A DNA stretch of 64,000 bases from an uncultured Actinomycetota bacterium (lineage in GTDB: Bacteria; Actinomycetota; UBA4738; HRBIN12): assembly GCA_963746335.1 (NCBI GenBank), contig CAVVAK010000009.1, positions 244,157 to 308,156 of the forward strand. The letters run 5' to 3'. Positions 7,232-16,864 of the stretch are shown here, in pieces. Made by a program: the position numbers and the translations under genes. The notes under the pieces are model-generated. The model saw only the letters and a program-made list of their open reading frames with translations, did not search any database and had not been told where the DNA came from. Position 1 is the first letter of the stretch, and each line of letters opens with the position of its first letter.

Positions 7232-8041
7232 ATGCCAGGCCCTGATCGGATGACGGACCGACGCCCATTGGTCGCGATCTCGGAAGGCTTCGCCGACTAC
7301 GGCGACTACTACGGATACGGGTACGGGCGCCCGCTGCTCGCAGCGGACGCCCTCCCCGTCCTCCTCCCGTACTACGAACGGGAGGAGGATCGAGTTGGCT
7401 TGATCGAGCAGATCGACGGCCTCGTCCTCGCCGGGGGCAGGGACATCGAGGCCTGGCGCTACGGGCGTGAGGAGCCCCATCCCAAGCACCTACCCGGGCA
7501 GCCCTTCCTGGACGAGATCGACATCTCCTACGCGCTGCTCGCGGTCGAGCTGGAGGTGCCCGTCCTGGGCGTATGCCGGGGGTGTCAGGTGCTGAACGTC
7601 GCCCTCGGCGGGACGCTCTACGGAGATCTCGACGAGTTCCCGGAGGGTGGTGCGGATCATCCCGGTGCCAAGTGGGACGAGTGGCGAGCCTTGGTCGCCG
7701 CGACGCTCGAGGGGACGGAGCGCCCTCCGCACCCCAGCCATCCCGTCGATCTGAAGCCGGGGTCGCTCCTCGCTTCCCATCTCGGGGAGCGCTATGAGGT
7801 GGACAGCTACCACCATCAAGCGGTGAAGGATCTGGGGACCGGCCTCGAAGCGGTCGCCTGGGCGCCGCACGGGACCATCGAGGCTATCGAGATGCCCGGT
7901 GCACCCGTGTTCGTTCTCGGTGTCCAGTGGGAGCTCCATGAGGAGTGGCAGGACGACGAGCGTTCGCTCGCCATCTGGCGCACGTTCGTCGACGACGCCC
8001 GGCGCCGGATGGAGGCGCGTGAGGAGGTCTGGGTTCCCTGA
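7232..8041 (+). CDS. peptidase C26 / class-I glutamine amidotransferase-type gamma-glutamyl hydrolase (PuuD-like)
   Basis: 269 aa with GVCRGCQVLNVALGG (nucleophile Cys) and YHHQAV (catalytic His), the layout of gamma-glutamyl-GABA hydrolase family proteins. Confidence 0.8.
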   Translation: MPGPDRMTDRRPLVAISEGFADYGDYYGYGYGRPLLAADALPVLLPYYEREEDRVGLIEQIDGLVLAGGRDIEAWRYGREEPHPKHLPGQPFLDEIDISYALLAVELEVPVLGVCRGCQVLNVALGGTLYGDLDEFPEGGADHPGAKWDEWRALVAATLEGTERPPHPSHPVDLKPGSLLASHLGERYEVDSYHHQAVKDLGTGLEAVAWAPHGTIEAIEMPGAPVFVLGVQWELHEEWQDDERSLAIWRTFVDDARRRMEAREEVWVP

Positions 8042-8105
8042 CCGGCTCCACGCAGGGAAGACCCTAGAATCCTCTCGGAACCGACCTCGAAAGGTGGTCG
8101 TTGGG

Positions 8106-9440
8106 ATGACGCTTCCGGAGCATGCGCGGGTCGTCGTGATCGGTGCCGGCGTCCACGGCCTCTCCACTGCCTGGCATCTGGCGAACGAACTCCGAGCTCG
8201 CGGCGTCGGAGACGGAAGGGACGTCGTCATCCTCGACAAGGAAGGGGTCGGCGCCGGCCCGTCGGGCATCGCCTGCGGCGTGATCCGGAACAACTACTTC
8301 CAGCCCGCGATGCGCGAGCTGATGGCGCACTCGGTGCAGGTCTGGGAGTCGGACCCCGAGGCCTTCCACTACCACCCGATCGGCTATCTCCAGATCGGCC
8401 CGGAGGTGATGCGCGCCGACGTGGCGCAGATCCACGAGGAGCAACAGGCGATCGGGTATCCGTCGGAGCTGATCGAGGGCGACGACGATTGCCGGACCTA
8501 CATGGAGTCGATCTTCTCGGATTGGCAGGCCAAGAACATCTCGGTGGTCCTGCACGAGAAGAAGGGCGGATACGCCGAGAACATGCCGTCGATGCGCGGC
8601 CTCCGCGGGAAGAGTGAGGCGCTCGATGTCGAGCTCCACACGCCGGTGACGGTGACGGGGCTCGCGGTCGACGGCGGGGCGGTGACCGCCGTGGAGACCG
8701 ACAGGGGAACGATCGCCTGCGAGCAGCTCGTGGTGGCGGCCGGTCCCTGGGTCCGGGATTTCTGGCACATGCTCGACCTGCCCGGCGTCGTCGACGTGAA
8801 GGGCCGCGACGGCACGGTGTACGAGCGTCCGATGTGGACGTACTGGTGCCTCCAGGAGGGAACCCTCGGGGTCGATCCCACCTACCTCGTGGACAACGAG
8901 GGGAACATGCCGCCCGTGGTCCATCTGGACACGGATGCGCCCCTGCTCGACGACATGGACGGCTCGACCGTGAGCGAAGACCTCTGGGGCATCTACTACA
9001 AGCCCGACTTCAACTTCGGCGGCGTCCAGGGGGGGGCGATGCCGTGGGTGGTCGAGCAACCGGCAGACGATGTCGCGGTCGACCCGTACGGGGAGAGGAG
9101 CACGGAGTTCCTCGTGACGCCGGAGTTCGAGCGTATGTGGACGTCCGCGCTGGCGCACTGTCAGAAGCGCTTCGAGGGCAAGCGGCCGCTCTACCGGAAG
9201 GCGCCCACCGGAGGCATCGGCGCGTTCACGCCGGACAGCTTCCCTGTGTTCGACCTGTTCCGCGAGAACGCCTACGTGATCGCCGACTCGAACCACGGCT
9301 ACAAGATGATCGGGATCGGAGCGCTCGTCGCGAAGGAGCTCCTCGGAGAGAACCAGTCGCTGCTCGAACCCTTCCGGTTCTCCCGCTTCGCGGAGGGTCG
9401 GCTGCACCCGGTCAGTCATTCCCCGTACCCCTGGAGCTAG
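8106..9440 (+). CDS. FAD-dependent oxidoreductase of the DAO / sarcosine-oxidase-beta-like family
   Basis: ATG at 8106 (track ORF 7899..9440 trimmed). The N-terminal VVVIGAGVHGLSTAWHLA is an FAD Rossmann motif. It is 444 aa and has no adjacent alpha/gamma/delta subunit genes. Confidence 0.8.
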   Translation: MTLPEHARVVVIGAGVHGLSTAWHLANELRARGVGDGRDVVILDKEGVGAGPSGIACGVIRNNYFQPAMRELMAHSVQVWESDPEAFHYHPIGYLQIGPEVMRADVAQIHEEQQAIGYPSELIEGDDDCRTYMESIFSDWQAKNISVVLHEKKGGYAENMPSMRGLRGKSEALDVELHTPVTVTGLAVDGGAVTAVETDRGTIACEQLVVAAGPWVRDFWHMLDLPGVVDVKGRDGTVYERPMWTYWCLQEGTLGVDPTYLVDNEGNMPPVVHLDTDAPLLDDMDGSTVSEDLWGIYYKPDFNFGGVQGGAMPWVVEQPADDVAVDPYGERSTEFLVTPEFERMWTSALAHCQKRFEGKRPLYRKAPTGGIGAFTPDSFPVFDLFRENAYVIADSNHGYKMIGIGALVAKELLGENQSLLEPFRFSRFAEGRLHPVSHSPYPWS

Positions 9441-9443
9441 CCG

Positions 9444-10424
9444 ATGGCGGAGCGCCGCGTCGCGGGGGCACCGCCGCTCGAGTTCGACCTGCCGGTCCAC
9501 GGCGGGTTCGCGCCGATCGGGATCGGCGAGACGTTCCCGGAGGAGACGACCGAGTCCGACGAGCTGGAGATCGCGGGCGAACCGGGGCAGGATCCAGCCG
9601 TCGCGTTCCGTCGCACGCTGGGCATGTTCGCGACGGGCGTCACCGTGATCACCACGCAGGCGGGGGACCAGGTGCACGGGATGACCGCCAACGCGTTCAT
9701 GTCCGTGTCGCTCCGCCCCCCGCTCGTCGTGATCTCGGTCGACCGGCGCGCCAAGATGCATGCCCTCCTGCACGAGGGCCGGCGGTACGGGATCAGCGTG
9801 CTCGCGGACGAGCAGCGGGCGCTCTCCGACCGCTTCGCCGGCCGCACCGGCGAGGGAACGGAGGAGGTCGAGTTCGACATCGTTCACGAGACACCGCTCT
9901 TGCGGGGGGCGCTCGCCCATCTGGTGTCCAGGGTGGTGCGCTCCAACTGGGGAGGCGACCACTCGCTGTTCGTGGGGCAGGTCGAGTACGCACGCTACGG
10001 GGAAGGGCAGCCGCTCCTGTTCCACGGCGGTCGGTACGAGCATCTGGTGGAGCGCGTCCCCGTGTTCTCCTCGCTGCCGCCCGAGATCCTCGACGCGATC
10101 ACATCCCAGGGTGACGAGCGCACCTTCGAGGCCGGGGAGTTCGTCGTTCGGGATGGTGATCCCGGCGATGAGCTCTTCGTGATCCTGGACGGGGAGGCCC
10201 GCGTCGAACGGAAGGGGAGCGCGCTCGCGACGTTCGGCACGGGCGACTTCTTCGGGGAGATCGCCGTGTTCGACGGCCGCCCCCGGAGCGCCGACGTCGT
10301 GGCCGCGACACGCCTGCGGACGCTGTCGATCTCGCGCGACCTGATCCGCGAGGCGCTCATGCGCGAGCCTCGGGCGGCCTGGGCGATGCTCGAGGTTCTG
10401 GCCGCTCGCTTCCGCGACGACTGA
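9444..10424 (+). CDS. fusion protein: flavin reductase-like domain plus C-terminal cyclic-nucleotide-binding domain
   Basis: The N-terminal half (FRRTLGMFATGVTVITT, GMTANAFMSVSLRPPLVVISV, HSLFVGQV) is the flavin reductase fold. The C-terminal half (FEAGEFVVRDGDPGDELFVILDGEARV, FFGEIAVFDGRPRSADVVA) is a cNMP-binding cassette. It starts 3 nt after the previous stop. Confidence 0.85.
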   Translation: MAERRVAGAPPLEFDLPVHGGFAPIGIGETFPEETTESDELEIAGEPGQDPAVAFRRTLGMFATGVTVITTQAGDQVHGMTANAFMSVSLRPPLVVISVDRRAKMHALLHEGRRYGISVLADEQRALSDRFAGRTGEGTEEVEFDIVHETPLLRGALAHLVSRVVRSNWGGDHSLFVGQVEYARYGEGQPLLFHGGRYEHLVERVPVFSSLPPEILDAITSQGDERTFEAGEFVVRDGDPGDELFVILDGEARVERKGSALATFGTGDFFGEIAVFDGRPRSADVVAATRLRTLSISRDLIREALMREPRAAWAMLEVLAARFRDD

Positions 10425-10425
10425 G

Positions 10426-11295
10426 TCAGTCGATCTCCGGCAGCTCGTCGAGCCAGGCCGTCCGGTAGCCGGTCTCGTCCCACATCACGGGGAAGAACGA
10501 CTCGTCCATCGAGACGTCGCCACGGCGCCGGTACCGCGAGTAGATGAGATCGACGTTGCGGTGGTGGAAACGTGCGTGGGACGGAAGCATGTGGGACACC
10601 AGCGCCATGCGAGCCACCGTGCCGCTCCTGTTCGGCTCGGAACCGTGCCACGTCAGGTTGTGGTGGAAGGCGCCGCCGCCGGGCTTCACGACGACCGGCA
10701 CGACCTCCATCTCGGCGTCGACCGGTTTCGCCGCCCTGACGCCCTCGAGCCAGTCCTCGGGCGCGTGGAACTGCGAGCGCTCCGGGGGTGTCCACGGCCA
10801 GTGGTTGGAGCCGCGAACGTAGGCGATCGGGCCGGCGTCGGCCTGCGTCTCATGGAGCGACATCCAGCAGGTGACCATCTCCGGCGGCACGAGGTAGTCG
10901 GCGTACGAGCCGTCCTGGTGGAAGCCGATCGCCTTCGTCCCCGGGGGCTTCCACAGGACGTTGTCCTGGAGGATCCGCACGCCTGGGTAGCTCATCAGCT
11001 GTGCGGCGAGCCGTCCGATCCTCGCGGACAGGACCTGCGCCGCGATCACGGTGTCCGCGCGCCACGCGTTGCAGAGCTGCCGGGTGCGGTCCTCGGGATC
11101 CCGGCCCTTGACCCAATTGACCTCGTCCGGCTTGATCCCCGTCTCGTACTCGCCGTCGAAGAGGCGGAGGTAGCGCTCCTCCAGCAGCTCCCGTGCCTTG
11201 TCGGAGATCAGGCCCTCCTCCACGACGAGGAACCCGTCCCGTTGGAAGGTCTCCACCTGCTCGGGTGTGAAGGATTCGACGAGGCGGCCCATCAC
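10426..11295 (-). CDS. phytanoyl-CoA dioxygenase (PhyH) family Fe(II)/2-oxoglutarate dioxygenase
   Basis: 289 aa with F..DGFLVV at the N-terminus, the FHQDGSY His-x-Asp motif and a distal HxxW/HGS region. The start (GTG 11295 or ATG 11292) overlaps the stop of the upstream gene. Confidence 0.8.
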   Translation of the reverse strand: MMGRLVESFTPEQVETFQRDGFLVVEEGLISDKARELLEERYLRLFDGEYETGIKPDEVNWVKGRDPEDRTRQLCNAWRADTVIAAQVLSARIGRLAAQLMSYPGVRILQDNVLWKPPGTKAIGFHQDGSYADYLVPPEMVTCWMSLHETQADAGPIAYVRGSNHWPWTPPERSQFHAPEDWLEGVRAAKPVDAEMEVVPVVVKPGGGAFHHNLTWHGSEPNRSGTVARMALVSHMLPSHARFHHRNVDLIYSRYRRRGDVSMDESFFPVMWDETGYRTAWLDELPEID

Positions 11296-13640
11296 GACGA
11301 GCGGGGCCGCGTCTTGTCCGGGTCGTAGAAGGGGAAGCGGACGACCTGTGCGCCGATGCGCTTCTGGTGCCCGTCGAGCTTGCCGACCTCCAGGGCGGTG
11401 CCCGAGTCGCGGTGCTGCACCGCGACACGGGCGAGTGCGATGTTCTTCTTCAGAGTCGGGGAGCGGGTGCCGCTCGTCACGACCCCCACCTGCTGCCGGT
11501 CGGCGTACACGCCGTCGCCGTGTCCGGCCGTCTCGTTGCCCTCGAGCTCGAGCCCGACCAAGGTCCTTTGCGGGTGGTCCCGGCGCTCGAGCAGGGCCTC
11601 ACGCCCGACGTAGTCCTCGTCCTTGTCCCTGGGCACCGTGAAGCCGATCCCGGCCTCGAACGGGTCGACCTGATCGTCGAACTCGGAGCCCGCGAAGATC
11701 AGGCCGGCCTCGATGCGCAGGATGTCCAGCGCATCCAGGCCGACGGGCGCGAGGCCGTGTTCCTCGCCGGCCTCCCACACCGCGTCCCACACCACAGGAG
11801 CGTCCTTCGGATGGCAGAAGATCTCGTAGCCGAGCTCGCCCGTGTAGCCCGTTCGGGAGATCACGGCGGGCACGCCCGTCGGCCCGCCGATCCGCCCCAC
11901 CGAGAATCGGAACCATCCAAGCCCTTCGAAGGGCGTCTGGGCCGGCGGGACCCATACGACCTCCTTCAACAGGTCGCGGCTCGCCGGACCCTGAACGGCC
12001 ACGTTGTGGAGGTGGTCGGTCGACTCCTTCACGAACGCGTTCAAGCCCAGGCGCGCGGCCTGCTCCCGGAGCCAGACGCCGTCGTACTCGCTGCCGCCCA
12101 CGAACCGGAAGTTCGTGTCCGCGATCCGGAAGATCGTGGCGTCGTCGATCATCCCGCCGGCCTCGTTGCACATCGCCGTGTAGACGACGTGCCCGTCGGC
12201 CAGGCGCCGGACGTCGCGGGTGACGGTCGCCTGCATCAGCGCCTCCGCGTCGGGACCGAGCACTTCGAACTTCCGGAGCGGCGAGAGGTCCATGATCGCC
12301 GCGCGCTCGCGGCAGGCCCAGTACTCGTCGGTGGCGCCGTGGTTGTCGAAACTCGTCGGCAGCCAATAGCCGTTGTACTCCGTCATCCGGCTCGTCAGCT
12401 GCGAGATCCGCGGGTGGAAGCCGGTCTCCGTCGTGAGGGACGGCTCCGCGTCGGGCGTGACGCGGTGCGCGATCGCCGCCGAGAAGGTGTGCTCGGGGGG
12501 ATACACACGCACGTGCACCTCGGTCGGATCCCAGCCGTTCGCGGGGTCGACGTCGTCGGGACAGGCGCTGGAGGCGCACACCAGGTCGGTCGCCGCTCGC
12601 AGCAGCACGTAGTCCCCGGGGCGGGACCAGGGCTCGTCGAACACGAGCAGGTTGTCCGTCGCGAACATCGTGTTGTAGAAGAAGTTCAGCGCCTGCCAGC
12701 CCTTCCTCGGCGCGATCGCGTAGGTCTCGAGCTGCCGGTTGAAGTTGTCGGTGCAGTTCGTGTGGCCGAAGTACCCGAGGTTCTCGTAGTACCGAGAGGT
12801 GCACGCGAGCAGGAACGAGTCGTGCCGCCCGACCGTGTCCCGGATCACTTCGACCAGCACGTCCATGTCGAGATCGAAGAACTTCGAGTACAGGCCAGGT
12901 TGGGGGAACGCATTCCCCATCAAGGTGCGGGTGATCGTGGGATCGAAGCCACGCTCGACGCCGTCCTCGAGCTTCCGGCGATGGAACGCCAGGAAGTCCG
13001 AGCACTGCTTGCCCTCGACGTCGATGATCTGGATGTACTCCCCGGCCTTGACCTCGTAGGACAGGGCGGTCGCGCGATCGACCCGGAAGTCGAGGCGCGG
13101 CTCGGCGAGCGGGGGAGGGAGCTCGAGCTCGTCGTGGGTCCGAGGGCGCGTCCGACGAACCTCCACGTCGAGGTCCGACGCAGGGACACCGCCCTCCAGC
13201 AGGGACGCGCCCTCGGGCGCCGCGATCACGACGACGACCGGCCGTTCCGCGGTGAACGTGTGGGAGGTCCCCGGCGGCGACCACTCGCCGAACAGCCGGA
13301 CGGCCATCGCCGCCGAGGGGTCCAGGCCACGACCGGCCAGGGACGCCACCACGTCCCTCGCGCCGACCGCGTCGGATCCGATCAGCGAGCGCAGCACCGA
13401 TGCGGGGGCGTCGGCCCGACCGCCCAGCGCATCGGCGTCATCGGAGCCGTCCGGCGCGAGGGCCGTGACCTCCGCCACCTGACCGCCGTCCGGATCGTGC
13501 ACCGTGAGCTGGTCGTCGCCTTCGAGGGTTATCACGGTGGCACCACCGGGTCGGACCCAGTACCGCTCGAGGAACGGGTCCGAGGCGATCAGTCCGGGGA
13601 CGGTGAGGCCTCGGCGTCCGGTCGAGATCGCCATCCGCAT
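11292..13640 (-). CDS. tdm: DUF1989 + GcvT (THF-binding aminomethyltransferase) fusion, the architecture of trimethylamine-N-oxide demethylase
   Basis: 782 aa. The N-terminal part is a Cys-rich DUF1989-type block (VEGKQCSDFLAF, LLACTSRYYENLGYFGHTNCTDNF, LVCASSACPDD). The C-terminal 400 aa is GcvT-like (AIMDLSPLRKFEV, TGYTGELGYEIF, PVGLDALDILRIEAG). The start overlaps the upstream stop (TGATG). Confidence 0.65.
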   Translation of the reverse strand: MRMAISTGRRGLTVPGLIASDPFLERYWVRPGGATVITLEGDDQLTVHDPDGGQVAEVTALAPDGSDDADALGGRADAPASVLRSLIGSDAVGARDVVASLAGRGLDPSAAMAVRLFGEWSPPGTSHTFTAERPVVVVIAAPEGASLLEGGVPASDLDVEVRRTRPRTHDELELPPPLAEPRLDFRVDRATALSYEVKAGEYIQIIDVEGKQCSDFLAFHRRKLEDGVERGFDPTITRTLMGNAFPQPGLYSKFFDLDMDVLVEVIRDTVGRHDSFLLACTSRYYENLGYFGHTNCTDNFNRQLETYAIAPRKGWQALNFFYNTMFATDNLLVFDEPWSRPGDYVLLRAATDLVCASSACPDDVDPANGWDPTEVHVRVYPPEHTFSAAIAHRVTPDAEPSLTTETGFHPRISQLTSRMTEYNGYWLPTSFDNHGATDEYWACRERAAIMDLSPLRKFEVLGPDAEALMQATVTRDVRRLADGHVVYTAMCNEAGGMIDDATIFRIADTNFRFVGGSEYDGVWLREQAARLGLNAFVKESTDHLHNVAVQGPASRDLLKEVVWVPPAQTPFEGLGWFRFSVGRIGGPTGVPAVISRTGYTGELGYEIFCHPKDAPVVWDAVWEAGEEHGLAPVGLDALDILRIEAGLIFAGSEFDDQVDPFEAGIGFTVPRDKDEDYVGREALLERRDHPQRTLVGLELEGNETAGHGDGVYADRQQVGVVTSGTRSPTLKKNIALARVAVQHRDSGTALEVGKLDGHQKRIGAQVVRFPFYDPDKTRPRSS

Positions 13641-15043
13641 CAGCCTTTGGCCGCGGGCTCCTTGGACACCTGCTCGTCCGCCTCCTTGAAGAGCTGCTCG
13701 GCGAGCTCGCGCTTGCCCGCCGCGTCGAGCTTCTTGACCTCGTTCTCCACGGCCCGTCGGTTGTAGGACTGGTTCCAGTAGTCGAGCGACTCGAAGCCGA
13801 GGAGCACGGCTTTCCCGACGAATTGCCGCAGCACCTCGTTGGTCGGTCCCATCACCCAGCCGGCCTTGGCGTCACGCAGGTAGCGCTCGAGCTCCATGTC
13901 GCGCTTGTAGCCGGAACCGCCGCACGCGTGGAGCATCTTGTCGACGACGTGCGCGGTGTTCTTCGCAGCCACGAACTTGATCTGCCACGCCCAGTGGAGG
14001 AAGGTGCCGCGCGCGAGCTCGCCGGGGCCTGGGTTCACCGTGTTGTGCTCGGTCGCGCCGTCCATCGCCTGGGCGACGGAGAGCGTGAACAGCCGCGAGG
14101 CGTTGGTGTCCATGACGGCCTCGCCGACGTAATCCTGGATCGTGGGGTAGTCGGCGACCCGCAGCCCGACGTCCACGTGCTTCTTGCGGGTGGTGTGCCG
14201 CTTGGCGATGTCGATCGCCCCGAGGGCGAGCCCGTTCCACACCGACGAGGAGCCGACCAGGAACCAGGGATCGACGGATTCGTCGTTGGAGTTGGCGCCG
14301 TCGCCCGTCGGGCCGACGAGCTGCTCGGCGGGGATCTCGATGTTGTCGATCTCGATCGGCCCCGACTGGTTCCCTCGCAGCCCGAGCGCGTCCCACAGCG
14401 ACGGGTGCGCCTGGATGTGCTCGCCGTCCACGACGAACACGGAGAGATCGTCGTACCCGGTGAAATCGGGACTCGTCGTCTGTACGACGTAGAAGTCGGC
14501 GAACCCACCCGACGTCGTCCATGAGGCCTTCTTCCGGACCTTGAATCCGCCGTTGGAGCGCTCCGCGCCCGACGAGATCGGGTACCAGAAGTGGGAGCCC
14601 GTCTCGGGGTCGGAATAGGAGAGGGTGCCGATCTTGCCGGAGTTCAGCGGTCGGATGTACTTGTCGACGAGCTCGGGGGTGGCGCGAAGCATGATCGCGT
14701 TCACGGCGCCGATGTGCATCACGTAGCACATCGCGGTGGAGGCGCAGCCGTAGCGTGCGATCGTCTCGCAGACCATCGAGTAGGCGACGTGGTCCTCGCC
14801 GAGGCCACCGTACTCCTCCGGCACGGTCAACCCAAGGAACCCGTGCTCGCCGAGGAGCTCCAGGTTGCGGCGAGGGAACATGAGCTCGTCGTCGAAACGC
14901 TTGGCGTTCGCGCGGAGCTCCTTCTCGCAGAGCTCGATCAGCGTGGCGCGGAGCTCCTTCTGCTTGTCGGTGTAGACCCAGTCCGGATCCCAGTCGTAGC
15001 CGAGTCCCCAGAAGGGCTCGGCACCCCACATCTTCTCGGTCAT
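13640..15043 (-). CDS. acyl-CoA dehydrogenase-fold flavoprotein with a non-canonical active site; possible flavin-dependent monooxygenase/oxidase
   Basis: ATG at 15043 with a GGAGG RBS (track ORF extended to 15124). It has the ACAD fold throughout. The usual IYEGT catalytic-Glu block reads VMGPT, and there is a C-terminal extension of about 60 aa. Confidence 0.75.
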   Translation of the reverse strand: MTEKMWGAEPFWGLGYDWDPDWVYTDKQKELRATLIELCEKELRANAKRFDDELMFPRRNLELLGEHGFLGLTVPEEYGGLGEDHVAYSMVCETIARYGCASTAMCYVMHIGAVNAIMLRATPELVDKYIRPLNSGKIGTLSYSDPETGSHFWYPISSGAERSNGGFKVRKKASWTTSGGFADFYVVQTTSPDFTGYDDLSVFVVDGEHIQAHPSLWDALGLRGNQSGPIEIDNIEIPAEQLVGPTGDGANSNDESVDPWFLVGSSSVWNGLALGAIDIAKRHTTRKKHVDVGLRVADYPTIQDYVGEAVMDTNASRLFTLSVAQAMDGATEHNTVNPGPGELARGTFLHWAWQIKFVAAKNTAHVVDKMLHACGGSGYKRDMELERYLRDAKAGWVMGPTNEVLRQFVGKAVLLGFESLDYWNQSYNRRAVENEVKKLDAAGKRELAEQLFKEADEQVSKEPAAKG

Positions 15044-15138: not shown

Positions 15139-15168
15139 GGCAACGGGGCGGCGAACCGCCCCGTTGCC
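15139..15168 (-). terminator. GC-rich hairpin, probable intrinsic terminator after the permease gene
   Basis: GGCAACGGGGCGG-CGAA-CCGCCCCGTTGCC forms a perfect 13-bp stem with a 4-nt loop, 22 nt downstream of the permease stop. There is no clear U-tract on the minus strand. Confidence 0.55.
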
Positions 15169-15190: not shown

Positions 15191-16717
15191 CTACGAGGAC
15201 CTGTCCGGCATGACCTCCTCGCGCAGCAGCCTCATCTGGTCCTCGCTCGGCACGCTCGGGACGTCCAGGTCTCGGAAGGTGATGGGCTTCCTGTCCTGAA
15301 CGGCGCGTCGATAGAAGAACAGGAGTACCGACGCCACGAGCACCCCGAGTCCGATCCACAGCGGCGCCCCCGCGAACTCGTAGAACCCCACGAAGGCAGC
15401 GACGTCGCTCTGCGTCACACCGAAGATCACGAGGAAGAGGTTGAAGGCTGCCAGCAGCCAGGCGAGACCGATCCAGGCGGGGCCGACCTTGATCGGCCTC
15501 GGCCAGTCCGGACGGTCTCGACGGAGCAGGAGGAACCCGGTGAGGGCGAAGACATGTGCGAGCACGTATCCGATGTTCGACATGTAGAGGATCGCCAGGT
15601 TGCTCGCCCCGAGGAGCAGGATGAGGGCCACGTTCACGACCATGTCGACGGTCATCCCACGCGCGGGGACGTGGAACTTGTTCAGGTGGTAGAGCCACTT
15701 GATCGTCATGTCGTCGCGGGCGATCCCGTAGAGCGCACGGCCGCCGTCGGCCGTGGCAGAGTTCATCGAAAGGACCAGGCTCGCGAGCAGGGAGATGATG
15801 GCGACCCCGCCGATCGTGTCGCCCACGATCGACTTGAACGCCTCGACGTAGTACGGCCCGAAGTCACCGGTGCTTCCCACCACGCCTCCCAGTCCGAGAG
15901 GGAGCAGGATGTACACGGCAAGCGAGAACGCGGCGGCGGATCGGAGGGCAAGCGCGGTGTCTCGTTTCGTGTCGTGGTACTCGGGAGCGAAGCTGGCACA
16001 GACCTCGATCCCGTATGCGGACCAGCACATGATGAACAGCCACATCACCGAGATCGAGAAGAGGCTGAACTCGCCTCCCGAAGCGACGTCCTCGAACTTC
16101 ACGTTCGAGCTCGACCAGTCGCCCGTGAAGTAGGGGACCACGATGAAGATCGCGAGCGGGATCATCAGCAAGACGCCGGTCACGTACCCGACGGCGAGCG
16201 AGGGCTTGACGCCGAACACGTTGAAGAGCCAGACGGCGATCACGACACCGATGCCGATGATGTTCGCCGGCCCGATGGCCGCGTCGAAGGGGGTGGTGAA
16301 GAAGACGGTCTCAGCCGAACCGGGGAACCATTCGGCGACGACGAGTGAACCGATGAGGTTGCCGAAGATCGAGAGGACCACGGACCATCCGATCCAGTAG
16401 CCGAAGGCGGAGATCGGGCCGGCGAGGTTGAAGTACTTGCGCCAGCCCTCGTGCGCGTAGAGCGCGATCCCGCCGGGCTTGTCCGGGAACATCGCCGCGG
16501 TCTCCGAGTAGATCCAGTTCTGGAGGAGACCGACCACTGCTGAGATGCCCCAGAGAACCACCGAGCCGAGGGCCCCGACGGTGGCCAGGGTGAAGCCGAG
16601 TGATGCGATCAAGAACCCCGGGTTGCACAGGGCGATGACGAAACCGTCCCACCAATTGAGCGACTTCAGGAGTTGACGCTCCTCGATGGTCGCCTGCGCC
16701 GTGACCTCGTCAGCCAC
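15191..16717 (-). CDS. APC-superfamily permease; candidate TMAO/methylated-amine importer
   Basis: Polytopic protein with about 12 TM segments and APC-type blocks. GTG at 16717 is preceded by GAGGGAGGGG; the track start at 16807 is less likely. It sits directly upstream of the ACAD-like/tdm-like operon. Confidence 0.8.
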   Translation of the reverse strand: MADEVTAQATIEERQLLKSLNWWDGFVIALCNPGFLIASLGFTLATVGALGSVVLWGISAVVGLLQNWIYSETAAMFPDKPGGIALYAHEGWRKYFNLAGPISAFGYWIGWSVVLSIFGNLIGSLVVAEWFPGSAETVFFTTPFDAAIGPANIIGIGVVIAVWLFNVFGVKPSLAVGYVTGVLLMIPLAIFIVVPYFTGDWSSSNVKFEDVASGGEFSLFSISVMWLFIMCWSAYGIEVCASFAPEYHDTKRDTALALRSAAAFSLAVYILLPLGLGGVVGSTGDFGPYYVEAFKSIVGDTIGGVAIISLLASLVLSMNSATADGGRALYGIARDDMTIKWLYHLNKFHVPARGMTVDMVVNVALILLLGASNLAILYMSNIGYVLAHVFALTGFLLLRRDRPDWPRPIKVGPAWIGLAWLLAAFNLFLVIFGVTQSDVAAFVGFYEFAGAPLWIGLGVLVASVLLFFYRRAVQDRKPITFRDLDVPSVPSEDQMRLLREEVMPDRSS

Positions 16718-16864
16718 TTGCCCCTCCCTCTCTTGACTCTTGGCCTGGCTCTGGGCCCTCTCGGGGCCCCCGAAGGCCTTCCGCACTCGCTGGCGGCGGT
16801 ATAGCACGGTGGTCCGGCGCGTTCAATCCGAGGAGGTTGCGTCCGACGGCATGCGAAGGCCCCC

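Follow-up and report, generated by a model that had tools for sequence, protein, structure and literature searches.

Trimethylamine N-oxide (TMAO) demethylase (Tdm, or TDM) has been characterised from Proteobacteria; those found are the enzymes of Methylocella silvestris (Msil_3603) and Paracoccus sp. DMF (PDB 9Q59, 9Q5L and 9Q5A). In the Paracoccus enzyme, the zinc ligands are C285, C301 and C365, the substrate and product residues are D220, F327 and D367, the folate-site residues are R480, F582, F672 and K782, and the formation of methylene-tetrahydrofolate (methylene-THF) by the C-terminal GcvT-type domain was shown (PMC13619132). The gene order on the plasmid of Paracoccus aminovorans is mgsABC-gmaS, tmm, tdm, an APC permease, dmmDABC and a sarcosine-oxidase-like operon, and that on a plasmid of Rhizobium etli is APC permease, tdm, tmm and dmmDABC. 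The group D two-component flavin monooxygenases have the acyl-CoA dehydrogenase (ACAD) fold and include isobutylamine N-monooxygenase and dibenzothiophene monooxygenase (DszC); the oxygenation of N or S is known for them (PMC6165268). In this work, a tdm gene was analysed in a stretch of 64,000 nucleotides (the window) from an uncultured Actinomycetota bacterium (assembly GCA_963746335.1, contig CAVVAK010000009.1, positions 244,157 to 308,156). The gene lies between an ACAD-like and a PhyH-family gene. Judged from its sequence, the conserved module around tdm is a new variant of the trimethylamine (TMA) pathway, in which we propose a function for the ACAD-fold partner. The genes of this module are as follows, in window coordinates:

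11292..13640, minus strand: tdm, predicted TMAO demethylase of 782 amino acids (aa) (open reading frame; Pfam, NF053776 and alignment with PDB 9q59)
13083-13640, minus strand: N-terminal domain of Tdm, residues 1-186
12441-13082, minus strand: zinc-binding DUF1989 core of Tdm, residues 187-400
11322-12416, minus strand: folate-binding GcvT domains of Tdm, residues 409-773
13640..15043, minus strand: ACAD-fold flavoprotein of 467 aa, predicted oxygenase component and candidate TMA N-oxygenase
10426..11295, minus strand: PhyH-family Fe(II)/2-oxoglutarate dioxygenase of 289 aa, whose start overlaps the tdm stop
9444..10424, plus strand: fusion of an NADH:flavin reductase (Flavin_Reduct) and a cyclic-nucleotide-binding domain, convergent with the PhyH gene

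A preliminary description of this DNA had taken the 782-aa product for a fusion of a Cys-rich DUF1989 domain and a GcvT domain, and thus for a Tdm-type enzyme in a Gram-positive-type genome. The reading frame at 11292-13640 on the minus strand is indeed open, and Pfam places DUF1989 at residues 187-354 (E 2.6e-45), GCV_T at residues 409-667 (E 1.5e-69) and GCV_T_C at residues 692-773 (E 3.9e-21). The suggested relation of DUF1989 to the urea/guanidine-carboxylase-associated proteins is borne out by NCBIfam matches to UAAP2 (E 5e-24) and UAAP1 (E 9e-14) on the same stretch, while "Cys-rich" is better replaced by a count: the core contains five cysteines, of which three are zinc ligands. The assignment to the Tdm type agrees with the DUF1989 score, with the alignment to known Tdm and with the metal ligands. 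The protein scores 1163.8 bits on NF053776, the equivalog model of TMAO demethylase, a narrow margin above the cut-off of 1100. Furthermore, residues 11-781 align with the cryogenic electron microscopy structure of Paracoccus TDM (PDB 9Q59) at E 5e-266, and identity to proteobacterial Tdm is 52-56% over the full length. The names of close homologues in public records are only "DUF1989 domain-containing protein" or "aminomethyltransferase".

The query was aligned with 78 actinobacterial relatives (79 sequences) and with three proteobacterial Tdm from annotated plasmids, among which the P. aminovorans protein has a numbering identical to that of the Paracoccus structure. The zinc ligands correspond to C280, C296 and C360 of the query and are invariant in all 79 actinobacterial sequences. 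The same is true of D215 and D362 (D220 and D367 in Paracoccus) and of R475, F577 and F667 (R480, F582 and F672), and K776 (K782) is a lysine in 78 of the 79 and an arginine in one. F327 is replaced by Y322, and tyrosine is found here in 60/79 sequences. Compared with the Paracoccus structure, W476 of the contact between the N- and C-terminal parts is not conserved, and no actinobacterial sequence has a residue aligned with P14. The window protein thus has the same three-part architecture, zinc site, substrate residues and folate residues as the Paracoccus and Methylocella enzymes. Because of these conserved zinc, substrate and folate residues, the reading frame is read as a Tdm orthologue acting on TMAO, and orthology and residues together make it very probably a true TMAO demethylase that carries out the TMAO cleavage step. 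Three cysteines of the DUF1989 core would bind one structural and catalytic zinc ion, on which TMAO would be held by its N-oxide oxygen and split to dimethylamine and formaldehyde; the formaldehyde would then travel through an internal tunnel to tetrahydrofolate (THF), where the GcvT-type domain would capture it as methylene-THF. The preliminary description had left the substrate as TMAO or a different N-methyl or N-oxide compound. TMAO is the likely one, and the others are unlikely because the protein shares its active site with the proteobacterial Tdm.

It could be argued that the three-gene module acts on some other tertiary amine or N-oxide and that the Tdm-like protein is a specialised paralogue, since its partners are unlike those of every characterised Tdm, the Paracoccus F327 is a tyrosine here, and the equivalog score is barely above the cut-off. 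However, Tdm of Rhizobium and Acinetobacter, encoded beside tmm and dmm genes, likewise have tyrosine at this position, and in the core 59 positions are invariant across the actinobacterial and proteobacterial clades and only three are clade-specific. Moreover, in a quick maximum-likelihood tree the ACAD-linked Tdm interleave with the Tmm-linked Tdm of Rhizobium and Paracoccus, which points to the same demethylase with an exchanged partner, and the N-methylglutamate (methylamine) pathway is encoded in the same island. A different substrate is therefore very improbable. Taken alone, the tdm gene is ordinary, being a new member of a known enzyme family. As a side observation on its structure, Tdm residues 20-186 gave a weak collinear profile-profile match to residues 187-400 (hhalign; E 9e-4, probability 23%, 128 columns). 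Residues 1-186 are poorly conserved, have no zinc cysteines and show AAP instead of ACP as the second-copy cysteine motif, and this N-terminal domain may be a degenerate duplicate of the DUF1989 core.

The locus differs from those of Paracoccus and Methylocella in being actinobacterial, in having neither tmm nor dmmDABC beside tdm, and in having the ACAD-fold and PhyH genes as flanks instead. In a first survey, centred on tdm, the best 80 related loci all came from metagenome-assembled genomes (MAGs) of Actinomycetota, in agreement with the Gram-positive-type genome proposed earlier. The nearest named among them belong to Gaiellaceae, Gaiellales, Solirubrobacterales and Thermoleophilaceae (Gaiellales and other Thermoleophilia). 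The ACAD-like gene is directly upstream of tdm in 77/80 loci, and one of the exceptions is a truncated contig; identity to the window protein across these loci is higher for the ACAD-like protein (76-99%) than for Tdm (64-94%). A flavin reductase homologue is near tdm in 74 of the 80 loci, and PhyH is present in 43. In a second survey of 79 loci, retrieved with the ACAD protein as the query, tdm was downstream of the ACAD gene wherever the contig left room for it. Gene content was also counted in 201 genomes evenly sampled from the window's class, and 7 other genomes were searched in addition. In the class sample, 36 genomes encode Tdm and 40 the ACAD-like protein, with an overlap of 35; the ACAD-like protein thus accompanies Tdm in 35/36 genomes and is present in 5/165 of the others. 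PhyH was found in 39 genomes, including all 36 with Tdm, and its gene usually follows tdm directly. These counts include three unpublished genomes, namely G166 (positive for Tdm, ACAD and PhyH), G197 (ACAD and PhyH) and G120 (a match to flavin-containing monooxygenase, FMO), and the conclusions hold without them. A search of 72,556 plasmids, among them 139 with tdm, gave no ACAD-like protein. In two genomes (G122:C6:194634-199076 and G190:C4:245660-249923), the ACAD and PhyH genes are spaced as if they flanked tdm, and no Tdm match past E 1e-150 was found at these sites. Only a partial ACAD match was obtained in G122, where PhyH is also split into two pieces. Such a module may be undergoing decay.

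The gene overlaps named in the preliminary description were read as claimed: the ACAD stop and the tdm start have one base in common (TGATG), and the tdm stop lies inside GTGATG, which holds the PhyH start. The flanking genes are also of the families that it gave, according to Pfam, and as partners of Tdm they are new and conserved. On the other hand, the stoichiometric co-expression that it had deduced does not follow from the overlaps, which suggest translational coupling only. The statistics of the stop-start gaps across loci were noisy and only roughly usable. The most probable start of the ACAD gene is the ATG at 15043, giving 467 aa rather than 494 aa; this ATG is preceded by GGAGG 6 nt upstream, and the homologues align from it.

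The ACAD-like protein contains the Pfam domains Acyl-CoA_dh_N, Acyl-CoA_dh_M and Acyl-CoA_dh_1. An AlphaFold2 model from an alignment of 48 rows (mean predicted local distance difference test, pLDDT, 92.4) has the classical ACAD fold, with a template modelling (TM) score of 0.9 to ACAD structures; it replaced a single-sequence model that was unusable (pLDDT 38.8). The top Foldseek matches of this model in PDB were only canonical ACADs, and Foldseek cannot separate a dehydrogenase from an oxygenase within this fold. In the block of the catalytic glutamate, which reads YEGT in ACADs, every family member in the 29 rows checked has VMGPT or MAPS, and the position of the catalytic glutamate is occupied by glycine family-wide. 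The family is tight, with only 217 of 1.84 billion representatives at E <= 1e-30 and a steep drop of the score. Among the NCBIfam families, Rv1679/FadE16 matches best, with 226 bits where the cut-off is 600. Two distant relatives, 47% and 37% identical, are fused to a C-terminal FNR-like NAD(P)H reductase (FAD_binding_6 and NAD_binding_1). The simplest alternative would be an ordinary acyl-CoA dehydrogenase whose position beside tdm is meaningless, and the closest solved structures and sequences are indeed those of canonical acyl-CoA dehydrogenases. Against it stand the family-wide glycine in place of the catalytic glutamate, the position next to tdm in 77/80 loci of different species at an identity exceeding that of Tdm, the occurrence in nearly all Tdm genomes of the class and in few others, and the reductase-fused relatives. 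An ordinary dehydrogenase is accordingly an extremely improbable explanation, and an oxygenase fed with reduced flavin is far more likely than a dehydrogenase.

A probable source of reduced flavin is encoded nearby, and it is the presence of this flavin reductase that makes the ACAD-like gene product a probable two-component oxygenase. The reductase fusion at 9444-10424 matches PF01613 (E 1.3e-36) and PF00027 (E 1.5e-20), and its best NCBIfam matches are the StyB and HpaC reductase subunits, i.e. the kind of reductase that serves two-component monooxygenases. Like isobutylamine N-monooxygenase and DszC of group D, the window system therefore combines an ACAD fold without the dehydrogenase base and a separate HpaC/StyB-type NADH:flavin reductase. 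The window reductase carries a complete cyclic-nucleotide-binding domain, and its counterpart in the metagenomic locus L258 is a plain protein of 180 aa. Through this fusion, cyclic nucleotides could control the supply of reduced flavin.

The step that this oxygenase may catalyse is suggested by the genes which it appears to replace. The canonical cluster and the window island are alike in containing tdm, an APC permease of the TMAO-permease kind, gmaS/mgs and a sarcosine-oxidase-like mgd operon; they differ in that the ACAD-fold gene and the flavin reductase take the position of tmm in the window, and dmmDABC is absent. The genome of the window contains no Tmm orthologue. Its best FMO-like match reaches 38 bits, with 22% identity over 296 aa, and was rejected as a Tmm; the search included tblastn with three Tmm proteins, where the best identity was also 22%. 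In the class sample, 3/201 genomes gave FMO matches at E <= 1e-20, and none of these carries Tdm. On two plasmids that served as positive controls, DUF3445 reached 235 bits and a true Tmm about 100 bits (E 1e-30). Two actinobacterial tdm loci, L052 and L027, have no ACAD gene, and no ACAD-like orthologue was found anywhere in these two genomes. Both genomes encode a true Tmm of 57-60% identity over the full length, which in L052 directly follows tdm. Thus, the ACAD gene and Tmm are mutually exclusive in the actinobacterial genomes examined. Furthermore, the metagenomic locus L258 contains dmmD, ACAD, flavin reductase, tdm, APC permease and dmmA/B/C and has no tmm, and its pair of ACAD and reductase genes occupies the position of tmm in the Paracoccus layout. 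In many metagenome contigs, a second ACAD clade (59-66% identical to the query) occurs together with a flavin reductase and tdm, and tmm is missing from all of these loci.

We hypothesize that the ACAD-fold flavoprotein, co-transcribed with tdm, would pair with the NADH:flavin reductase as a two-component flavin monooxygenase, and that this monooxygenase would oxidise TMA to TMAO, standing in for the FMO-type Tmm. The same reaction is proposed for both enzymes from their same place beside tdm and their complementary spread in actinobacterial Tdm genomes. Their folds are unrelated, as Tmm is a single-component class B flavoprotein and the enzyme proposed here a two-component one of the ACAD fold. 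That the ACAD-fold protein and the reductase form an undescribed two-component TMA N-oxygenase replacing Tmm is the assignment we favour, with moderate confidence. No description of such an ACAD-fold TMA oxygenase, or of any characterised member of the family, was found in the literature. As a whole, a true Tdm together with an ACAD/reductase TMA oxygenase and an accessory PhyH protein is, with good confidence, the best explanation of the locus.

Several observations weigh against this explanation. The ACAD-like protein is closer to real ACADs (E 1e-34, about 25% identity) than to the group D monooxygenases. It scores 42.5 bits for DszC, 68.5 for SfnB, 54.8 for HsaA and 37.1 for the HpaH type, far below the cut-offs (for known group D members, 42-69 bits against cut-offs of 430-850), and belongs to a tight separate group. 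The absences in the window's own genome are weak on their own because the assembly (2.58 Mb in 10 contigs) is 78.9% complete. Moreover, five Solirubrobacterales genomes with ACAD and tdm all carry generic FMO-family proteins (E 1e-16 to 4e-94), and it is possible that these are active on TMA. Many ACAD-tdm loci, and both actinobacterial genomes of the Tmm type, lack the PhyH gene; judged by the latter absence, PhyH goes with the ACAD version of the module, and only in some lineages. Finally, the Solirubrobacterales have neither Dmm nor PhyH at these loci, which keeps alive a rival reading of the ACAD enzyme as a dimethylamine oxygenase. The FMO genes of four of the Solirubrobacterales loci (L285-L288; G201, G202, G204 and G205) score 123-315 bits on the Pfam FMO-like model, above true Tmm. 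As Tmm orthologues they were ruled out, with 24-32% identity against the 57-60% of true actinobacterial Tmm.

The reading as a dimethylamine oxygenase deserves a closer consideration. It would mean that Tdm uses imported TMAO and that the ACAD enzyme and its reductase oxidise dimethylamine to methylamine and formaldehyde, replacing DmmDABC and not Tmm. A gene resembling the TMAO permease adjoins the module, as this requires. Homologues of DmmA, DmmB and DmmC were not found in the window's own genome or in the 201 genomes of the class, in a search whose positive control reached 235 bits, and Solirubrobacterales that have ACAD, tdm, reductase and permease without PhyH or Dmm need a dimethylamine step. 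However, the L258 locus, which has ACAD and reductase along with dmmABC and dmmD, would then hold two dimethylamine oxygenases. The ACAD gene excludes Tmm and not Dmm, since both Tmm-type genomes lack ACAD and Dmm alike, and the oxygenation of a heteroatom is the known chemistry of ACAD-fold monooxygenases (PMC6165268). We thus regard dimethylamine as an unlikely substrate of the ACAD enzyme and retain TMA as the favoured one.

The oxidation of dimethylamine must then be sought elsewhere, and a search of the window's own genome gave no homologue of DmmA, DmmB, DmmC, DUF3445 or PDR. DUF3445 (Pfam HODM_asu-like), a gene of the dmm cluster, occurs in 0/201 genomes of the class sample, and the five Solirubrobacterales ACAD-tdm genomes have no homologue of it either. 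As no known dimethylamine enzyme is present in these lineages, the second step is still to be found. One candidate is the PhyH gene, whose product matches PF05721 (E 3.6e-22). Its residues H126, D128, H211/H212/H217 and R229 are invariant in 31 homologues, so that the HxD...H iron triad, with the distal histidine among H211/H212/H217, and the 2-oxoglutarate-binding arginine are kept. The nearest solved relative is MysH, at only E 8e-10, and the public names of the homologues are generic. Oxidative N-demethylation of dimethylamine by PhyH is a guess, and one that we consider rather doubtful. Its role as a universal substitute for Dmm was weakened, because it is missing from both Tmm-type genomes and from 4/5 Solirubrobacterales ACAD-tdm genomes; in the remaining one, a homologue of only 45% identity is encoded far away from tdm. 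A second candidate for the missing step is a DAO-family protein encoded at 7899-9440. Its gene is retained close to tdm not only in ACAD-type loci, but also in metagenome loci and in the two actinobacterial loci of the Tmm type. The protein scores 67 bits on the SoxB family, and no PDB match reached E 1e-10 and no close characterised relative was found. Together with the glutamine synthetase (GS)-like ligase and the C26 hydrolase of the island, it resembles a Puu-like gamma-glutamylation route.

The further features around the module are these:

7899-9440, plus strand: DAO-family FAD oxidoreductase
15139..15168, minus strand: G+C-rich hairpin with a perfect stem of 12 bp and a loop of 6 nt, in the gap from the permease stop to the ACAD start
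15191..16807, minus strand: APC-family permease (AA_permease_2), a distant relative of the Methylocella TMAO permease

The island around tdm also contains genes for formate-THF ligase, the GS-like gmaS, mgsABC and a C26 gamma-glutamyl hydrolase, in addition to the DAO-family oxidoreductase, the flavin reductase-cyclic nucleotide fusion, the APC permease and the sarcosine-oxidase-like mgd operon. The tdm gene therefore sits in a methylated-amine island with genes of the N-methylglutamate (methylamine) pathway. The NCBIfam model that the permease matches best is that of TMAO permease (NF053774); the score of 197 bits does not reach the cut-off (690), and the next family follows with 48 bits. This permease is the sole match in its genome to the tdm-linked APC permeases of Rhizobium and Paracoccus. 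The hairpin probably separates two transcription units. By direct reading no T tract follows its stem, it was not reported by the terminator scan, and a scan of the tdm operon for consensus promoters and terminators gave nothing above chance. The same genome contains 15 matches to the Tdm model, on contigs C2, C4, C6, C9 and C10. Besides tdm, 13 of them are strong (E 6.5e-46 or better) and concern the GcvT part, so that the range of folate-linked demethylases may be unusually wide.

Relatives of the ACAD-like protein extend further. The two reductase-fused proteins (P0128 and P0152) are annotated proteins of crustaceans: that of the American lobster, Homarus americanus (XP_042236428.1; 770 aa, 47% identity), is encoded on a 13-Mb scaffold, and the other is that of the ostracod Notodromas monacha (882 aa, 37% identity). 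Searches of genome contigs and metagenome contigs for loci of the lobster-type fusion gave nothing useful. TMAO accumulates in crustaceans, and a link of these fused proteins to TMAO is conceivable. Gaiellales MAGs and cultured Hyphomicrobium encode a sister family (L176-L203) whose identity to the ACAD-like protein is 45-50%. Its genes are near a DMGDH-like DAO-GcvT protein, an aldehyde dehydrogenase and AraC or cupin regulators and have no tdm nearby, and in Hyphomicrobium facile DSM 1565 (L198:7815-9913) the gene is followed by a Flavin_Reduct gene. The members of the sister family probably act as two-component oxygenases on a different methylated amine.

Methylated amines are a large pool of nitrogen and carbon in soil and sea, and their users are surveyed by counting tmm, tdm and dmm genes. 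The ACAD-like gene is carried by more than 560 species-level genomes, and some 570 species genomes carry tdm. In its broadest form, our proposal is that a monooxygenase non-homologous to Tmm replaces it in hundreds of species of soil Actinomycetota and in some other bacteria, that the reductase-fused crustacean members are self-sufficient amine oxygenases linked to TMAO, and that the PhyH and DAO genes fill the dimethylamine step where DmmDABC is lacking; for all of this jointly, the chances appear evenly balanced. If the function proposed for the ACAD-fold enzyme is true, the N-oxygenation of tertiary amines would join the chemistry of ACAD-fold monooxygenases. If this enzyme is the TMA oxygenase of Thermoleophilia and their relatives, it would also mean that the gene surveys miss abundant soil actinobacteria.

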